A DNA stretch of 64,000 nt from assembly GCF_003334335.1 (NCBI RefSeq), contig NZ_QOWQ01000026.1; one strand, given 5' to 3'. This DNA is from Escherichia coli. Its GTDB lineage: Bacteria; Pseudomonadota; Gammaproteobacteria; Enterobacterales; Enterobacteriaceae. This document shows, one piece after another, positions 62,834 through 62,911 of the stretch (its first letter is position 1; the number at the start of each line of letters is the position of its first letter). The position numbers and the translations under genes were made by a program. Below the pieces are notes generated by a model. That model did not search any database, was not told the origin of the DNA, and saw only the letters and a program-made list of their open reading frames with translations.

Positions 62834-62862
62834 AATGCGACCAATCATCGTAATGAATATGA

Positions 62863-62885
62863 GAAGTGTGATATTATAACATTTC
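62863..62885. promoter_or_regulatory. Zur box in the znuA-znuCB divergent promoter
   Basis: GAAGTGTGATATTATAACATTTC, near-perfect palindrome matching the Zur operator. Confidence 0.85.
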
Positions 62886-62911
62886 ATGACTACTGCAAGA
62901 CTAAAATTAAC

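Follow-up and report, generated by a model that had tools for sequence, protein, structure and literature searches.

General Organisation of the znu Locus

The window, i.e., the whole 64,000-nucleotide stretch of Escherichia coli DNA analysed in the present study, is collinear with positions 1,879,751–1,943,750 of the K-12 MG1655 genome (99.47% identity, one indel), and in the znu region the K-12 coordinate is obtained by adding 1,879,750 to the window coordinate. The znuA gene (61901–62833, minus strand) is annotated in RefSeq as encoding the periplasmic zinc-binding protein, and its product scores 524.9 bits with the NCBIfam equivalog NF007091, whose cut-off is 268. The divergently oriented znuC gene (62912–63667, plus strand) encodes the ABC ATPase (equivalog NF007090, 534.1 bits, cut-off 306). 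It is followed by the permease gene znuB (63664–64000, plus strand; K-12 annotation), which is cut by the window end, and the truncated ZnuB covers profile positions 1–112 of 261 and scores 233.3 bits against the NF007089 cut-off of 284. The identification of the ZnuABC importer is thus based on ZnuA and ZnuC, which exceed curated equivalog cut-offs, with ZnuB partial at the end of the window. E. coli carries the gene of the zinc-responsive regulator, zur, which is not located within the 64-kb window.

The ATG codons of znuA (62833–62831, minus strand) and znuC (from 62912) bound a divergent spacer of 78 bp (62834–62911), and both reading-frame starts bear out the length proposed for it in the preliminary description. 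A 501-bp probe spanning the spacer found matches in all 5426 complete E. coli genomes, and the flanks were always annotated in RefSeq as znuA and znuC. In one of the E. coli genomes, the znuA-znuC spacer region occurs twice, with one of the copies located on a plasmid. The search for RNA elements in the spacer gave no Rfam match, even at E-values up to 1.

The spacer differs from that of K-12 by one substitution at 62846 (C in the window, A in K-12), outside the operator discussed below, and positions 62847–62911 are base-identical. The allele of the window is the majority form: of 5425 E. coli genomes, 4369 carry the 41-mer 62826–62866 with an identity of 99% or higher, the identity with K-12 being 97.6%. 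The C at 62846 produces a minus-strand ATG (62846–62848) that is in frame with znuA and precedes its annotated start by five codons. Across genera, the CATCGT block at 62846–62851 shows a conservation of about 80%. In Mixta and some other genera, an in-frame stop follows the ATG at this place, so the block may function in ribosome binding or as a −35 element rather than as a start codon. The proteins ZnuA and ZnuC differ from their K-12 counterparts by the replacements G98E and V60G (window position 63090), respectively, which leave the operator untouched. The ZnuC replacement is located after the Walker A region; none of the commonest variants in 80 related loci has G at this position, which is occupied by V, T, S or E.

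The stop codon of znuC (TGA, 63665–63667) and the start codon of znuB (ATG, 63664–63666) overlap in the sequence ATGA (63664–63667), as was noticed earlier. Genes znuC and znuB overlap in 79 of 80 species, by 4 nt in 52 of them, by 8 nt in 17 and by 1 nt in 10, and the remaining species has a gap of 2 nt. This conserved overlap is consistent with the translational coupling of the two genes; znuB would probably be translated by ribosomes terminating at the overlapping znuC stop codon.

The mepM gene (60563–61885, minus strand; NCBIfam NF008652) is located 15 nt downstream of the znuA stop codon, and no terminator-like site was found between the two genes. An intrinsic terminator, comprising a stem of nine pairs, six of them G-C, followed by TTTTTTT, is positioned after mepM (60547–60523, minus strand) and is likely to mark the end of a znuA-mepM transcript. 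It has been reported that mepM and yebA are induced by zinc starvation (PMC6381278). The short gap, the downstream terminator and the reported induction fit the co-transcription of mepM with znuA. It seems probable that the two genes are co-transcribed, which would place mepM under the same Zur operator.

Zur Box in the Divergent Spacer

The preliminary description had proposed that a near-perfect palindrome in the spacer serves as the operator of Zur. This palindrome, GAAGTGTGATATTATAACATTTC, occupies exactly the assigned position, 62863–62885, with nine of 11 arm pairs complementary around T62874, which is 1.5 bp away from the spacer midpoint at 62872.5. The repeat search reported only a 9-nt core palindrome within the box because two arm mismatches break gapless extension, and the arm pairs were therefore counted directly. 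Palindromy as such is of little value here: twenty 23-mers of the window possess at least nine of 11 complementary pairs, and most of them are G+C-rich terminator stems. The palindrome alone is statistically unremarkable in the window, and it is the match to the Zur motif that goes beyond chance.

This match was assessed in several ways. As a classical 23-bp Zur box, the sequence agrees with the gamma-proteobacterial consensus GAAATGTTATANTATAACATTTC, quoted in PMC4219657 and PMC2706843, at 21 of 22 specified positions, with two mismatches counted at 62863–62885, and in 100 shuffled windows no match to this consensus with three or fewer mismatches was found. The structure-based two-dimer pattern TGWNAYRWTATAWYRTNWCA is matched without mismatches at 62867–62886 (20 of 20 positions), with the dyad between 62876 and 62877; only 0.17 matches with up to two mismatches are expected per window. 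The other K-12 Zur operators (ykgM, zinT and pliG) show no or one mismatch to the same motif. The 18-bp skeleton RNNNYRNNRYNNYRNNNY, identified by comparing the sequence with the scheme of PMC4219657, is also present at 62868–62885, but has no discriminating power, with 253 matches in the window against 283 expected.

The scan with a Zur weight matrix, suggested earlier as a check on the site, was performed with a matrix of 26 columns built only from the operators of ykgM, zinT and pliG located in K-12, the znu site being left out of the training to avoid circularity. The site scored 23.1 bits at 62864–62889 and ranked first among approximately 128,000 positions on both strands of the 64-kb window. 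In 100 simulated 64-kb windows generated with a second-order Markov model, the maxima averaged 13.5 bits and the highest reached 21.2 bits; the training sites themselves scored 23.8–28.0 bits. The next unrelated match in the window, TCATGTTATGAAAAAAAATAACAACT (56765–56790, 17.4 bits), is located in the zwf-yebK intergenic region. Its score is within the simulated range and it is probably due to chance.

Fur boxes resemble Zur boxes in being AT-rich inverted repeats, and the two are recognised by homologous winged-helix proteins; the palindrome might thus be considered an operator of Fur or of another regulator of the Fur family or with a preference for AT-rich DNA. The search for the Fur consensus GATAATGATAATCATTATC in the spacer gave a best alignment with 12 of 19 positions, but this weak match lies at approximately 62843–62861, to the left of the palindrome, and the palindrome itself displays the nearly complete agreement with the Zur consensus and the complete agreement with the structure-based pattern given above. 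The flanking genes encode a zinc importer and not iron-related functions, and the identical DNA has been crystallised with Zur, with a read-out by Tyr45 that was described as Zur-specific (Gilston 2014, PMC4219657). The assignment of the palindrome to such a regulator instead of Zur can be regarded as extremely improbable.

Correspondence with the Crystallised Operator

The E. coli Zur structure has been determined on a 31-bp duplex of the znuABC operator carrying two Zur dimers, (Zur2)2 (Gilston 2014, PMC4219657; PDB 4MTD). The 31 paired bases of the oligonucleotide 31mer2bpOH-f of that work (Table S2), AGAAGTGTGATATTATAACATTTCATGACTATG, are base-for-base identical to positions 62862–62892 and have one exact match in the window. 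Binding of Zur, its stoichiometry, its zinc dependence and repression in vivo are cited from the literature, the crystal structure and the gel shifts having been obtained with identical DNA. The names of the mutants znu11TA (T62872) and znu12AT (A62873) indicate that base n of the crystal corresponds to window position 62861 + n. The two-fold axis of the complex was placed at the boundary of bases 15 and 16 (PMC4219657), and with this numbering the dyad lies between 62876 and 62877.

According to the same work, each dimer reads the pattern RNNNYxxxRNNNY, and the two dimers overlap with an offset of 5 bp (PMC4219657). Mapped onto the window, dimer 1 corresponds to 62868–62880 (centre 62874) and dimer 2 to 62873–62885 (centre 62879). 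Relative to the palindrome centre, the dyad is displaced by 2.5 bp to the right. The location of the palindrome in the preliminary description is right, but the two-fold axis of the complex lies between 62876 and 62877 and not at 62874, and the operator accommodates two cooperative dimers.

The two dimers interact cooperatively through Asp49-Arg52 salt bridges (Hill coefficient 2 or higher, apparent Kd 8.2e-18 M^2), and repression of znuC in vivo was 6.6-fold by RT-PCR (PMC4219657). Of the Zur sites, the znu operator is one of the weaker ones, its apparent Kd being approximately 150–330-fold weaker than those of zinT and L31p (PMC4219657). A third register of the pattern RNNNYxxxRNNNY is present within the 23-mer at 62863–62875 (centre 62869), in addition to the two occupied in the crystal. 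Its agreement with the fuller pattern is poorer, with three mismatches by eye, and it accounts for a secondary matrix match of 15.7 bits at 62859–62884.

Promoters Overlapping the Operator

In the Reg-Seq study, the Zur sites at the znuCB and znuA promoters are gold-standard sites, and both were recovered (PMC7567609). The transcription start of znuCB at K-12 position 1,942,634 (supplementary files 1 and 11), which corresponds to 62884 on the plus strand of the window, bears the description "only experimentally validated TSS" there, with Outten & O'Halloran 2001 given as its source (PMC7567609). An extended −10 element, TGaTATTAT (62869–62877), can be read 7 nt upstream of this start, with the hexamer TATTAT at 62872–62877 and the preceding TG at 62869–62870, and the whole element is inside the operator. 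An extended −10 within the operator is also mentioned in the legend to Fig. 1B of Gilston 2014 (PMC4219657). The per-base Reg-Seq signal of znuCB is near zero except from −18 to 0 (62866–62884); the largest value of the RNA polymerase type is at −12 (T62872), and the largest values of the repressor type are at −10 (T62874) and −14 (G62870).

The start of znuA given in the Reg-Seq tables (K-12 1,942,661, window 62911) is marked as a computational prediction (PMC7567609), and the start used in both RegulonDB and Reg-Seq is a computational prediction only. No experimentally mapped start of PznuA was found in the accessible literature. When the Reg-Seq data for znuA are projected on the window (position p corresponds to 62911 − p), there is no −35 or −10 signal relative to 62911. 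Instead, positions +13 to +17 (TTGCA) behave in an RNA polymerase-like manner and +18 (G) in a repressor-like one, and +35, +36, +39 and +40, which are again RNA polymerase-like, coincide with T1, A2, A5 and T6 of a TAATAT hexamer. The positions 62879–62877 in the core of the Zur box are repressor-like.

This signature suggests that PznuA has a −35 element TTGCAG (62898–62893, minus strand) and, after a 16-nt spacer, a −10 element TAATAT (62876–62871, minus strand), from which we infer a start near 62864. Such a start disagrees with the database position, and the computational start at 62911 is probably misplaced. With this placement, the divergent −10 hexamers overlap at 62872–62876, PznuA would share the operator-embedded −10 region with PznuC, and the 23-bp box would span the distance from the znuC start (62884) to the putative znuA start (approximately 62864). 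A perfect extended −10, TGtTATAAT, is also present on the minus strand (62881–62873), and it was considered as a candidate for PznuA. It is separated by only 14 nt from the −35 element supported by Reg-Seq, and positions 62878 and 62877 are repressor-like and not RNA polymerase-like, so TAATAT fits better. The scan of 62700–63050 for sigma-70 consensus promoters and terminators found nothing; for the promoters, this result is not evidence of absence because both −35 elements match the consensus at only three of six positions, below the threshold.

The earlier statement that the palindrome is placed to repress both divergent promoters is supported, although unevenly: for znuC, the validated start and the −10 element are in the box, and for znuA the support comes from the elements deduced from Reg-Seq. 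If the left register at 62863–62875 were usable in vivo, it could, together with the overlapping −10 elements, make the two promoters mutually exclusive and allow an asymmetric tuning of znuA-mepM and znuCB by Zur. This possibility is considered unlikely; if it were true, the database start of znuA at 62911 would be wrong.

Conservation of the Operator

In 5094 of the 5426 E. coli genomes, the 41-mer 62856–62896 is found with an identity of 99% or more. A scan based on ZnuC with one genome per species yielded 80 loci, which range from Escherichia to Arsenophonus and Gilliamella, and a divergent znuA was found in all of these loci of Enterobacterales and Gilliamella. When the whole 3.7-kb locus was searched with the independent matrix, the best match was just upstream of znuC, facing znuA, in 79 of the 80 loci. 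The dyad precedes the znuC ATG by 32.5–42.5 nt in 74 loci (35.5 nt in the window), and the spacer is 75–79 bp long in 50 of 53 spacers of Enterobacterales.

In the alignment of 49 distinct spacers of 75–79 bp, positions 62868–62885 have a mean identity of 0.89 with the window, compared with 0.67 and 0.62 in the flanks. The most conserved block, GTGATATTATAACAT, is almost invariant in these spacers, and GTG (62868–62870) and ACAT (62879–62882) are invariant or nearly so across genera. TGCAA at 62894–62898, in the putative −35 element of PznuA, is also at least 90% conserved in the 49 spacers.

In many species (loci L006, L013, L015, L017, L019, L020, L027, L030 and others), the matrix favours a register 5 bp to the left, with the dyad 39.5–40.5 nt instead of 34.5–35.5 nt before the znuC ATG and with the left arm GGAATGTGATATTATAACATTC. 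Such a shift is explained by the overlap of the dimer registers of the box. In six species (L067, L070, L071, L075, L077 and L078), the best match to the Zur box is 49–208 nt upstream of znuC instead of approximately 35 nt; the match in L075 is at 208.5 nt and scores 26 bits, and that in L067 is at 102.5 nt and scores only 15.5 bits. The displaced boxes suggest expanded or rearranged spacers in these species.

Two opposed −10 hexamers placed back to back, TATTAT and TAATAT, automatically generate an AT-rich dyad, and palindromes of equal quality are not rare in the window. The symmetry of the site could thus be a by-product of overlapping promoters without a separate protein-binding site. However, conservation and motif match reach well past the hexamers, to the GTG and ACAT blocks, and the matrix derived from the unidirectional promoters of ykgM, zinT and pliG still ranks the site first. 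In addition, Reg-Seq positions that are repressor-like in the zinc condition, with higher expression upon mutation, are found inside the box at 62870, 62874 and 62877–62879. A purely promoter-derived origin of the palindrome has next to no probability, and there is hardly any doubt that the bidirectional znuA/znuCB promoter of E. coli has its Zur operator at this site.

Other Regulatory Elements of the Window

A weak AT-rich site resembling Zur or other Fur-family boxes was detected at 25653–25678 (15.6 bits, two mismatches to the structure-based pattern), 34–59 nt upstream of the mntP manganese riboswitch (25712–25808). The riboswitch was missed by the default scan because its score of 41.6 bits is just under the Rfam gathering score of 45. 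Rfam matches at gathering level were obtained at 43350–43494, 8268–8353 and 27402–27862, and correspond to the overlapping antisense pair SraC/RyeA and SdsR/RyeB, to sroD and to a thermoregulator of the cspA type (cspC and its leader), respectively.

Comparison with Known Zur Operators

The locus corresponds to the znuA-znuCB operator of E. coli K-12 (Patzer & Hantke 1998/2000; Outten & O'Halloran 2001; Gilston 2014), having the same genes and spacing. The operator and the 31-bp crystal duplex are identical in both, and the two differ at position 62846 of the spacer and by the two amino acid replacements in ZnuA and ZnuC.

In Yersinia pestis, znuA and znuCB are likewise divergent, with a spacer of 73 bp and a Zur box over the −10 elements (Li et al. 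2009, PMC2706843). Repression by Zur in both directions was demonstrated there by lacZ fusions, gel shifts, DNase footprinting and primer extension (PMC2706843). Two separate protected regions were found in Y. pestis, one of them with a Zur box (PMC2706843), whereas a single site is described for E. coli in the accessible literature. The Yersinia species of the set contain GCGTAATATTATAACAT where GTGTGATATTATAACAT stands otherwise.

The operators of ykgM-ykgO (L31p/L36p), zinT and pliG share the structure-based motif with the znu operator, but serve unidirectional promoters. Like the znu operator, those of ykgM and zinT take up two dimers cooperatively (PMC4219657). The tighter binding of Zur to zinT and L31p mentioned above, approximately 150–330-fold, is accompanied by a 560–980-fold repression, compared to 6.6-fold at znuC (PMC4219657). 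The Fur box and the two-dimer operator of DtxR are similarly AT-rich inverted repeats with dimers on opposite faces and overlapping registers. [quoted passage not shown]

Proposed Mechanism of Regulation

With sufficient cytoplasmic zinc, two zinc-loaded Zur dimers would cooperatively occupy opposite DNA faces at approximately 62866–62886, around the axis between 62876 and 62877. The operator contains the −10 element of PznuC (TATTAT, 62872–62877, with an upstream TG) and would also contain that of PznuA (TAATAT, 62876–62871) and reach both starts. Zur bound over both −10 elements and starts would exclude RNA polymerase from both promoters, which would turn off the synthesis of the ZnuABC high-affinity zinc importer and probably that of mepM as well. 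Under zinc starvation, Zur would lose its regulatory zinc and depart, and both operons would be transcribed.

Occlusion by Zur might not be the whole mechanism if this DNA, or that next to it, is also used by other regulators. Partial ZntR motifs overlap the Zur box at all four promoters of the Zur regulon, and ZntR speeds the unbinding of Zur (PMC11618457). An OxyR site is listed for znuCB and znuA in the Reg-Seq notes (PMC7567609), and SoxS raises the expression of znuACB, in this case indirectly; gel shifts revealed no binding (PMC12818246). The second protected region in the spacer of Y. pestis is devoid of a Zur box (PMC2706843). Nevertheless, ZntR, OxyR and SoxS appear as modifiers of the Zur switch and not as its replacements, and the conserved spacer blocks outside the Zur box are explained by −35 elements and 5′ leaders. 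It is quite improbable that simple occlusion by Zur falls short of the full mechanism at this locus.

The znu feature is an already known Zur operator that has been characterised crystallographically, and it is not novel. As the operator has been described down to its crystal structure, the finding is correct but ordinary. Its value is that of a positive control, in which one of the best-characterised bacterial metalloregulatory operators was recognised from raw sequence, and all computational tests are in line with the literature. By-products of the analysis are the mapping of the crystal numbering and of the dyad onto the window, and the argument from the public Reg-Seq data against the database start of znuA.
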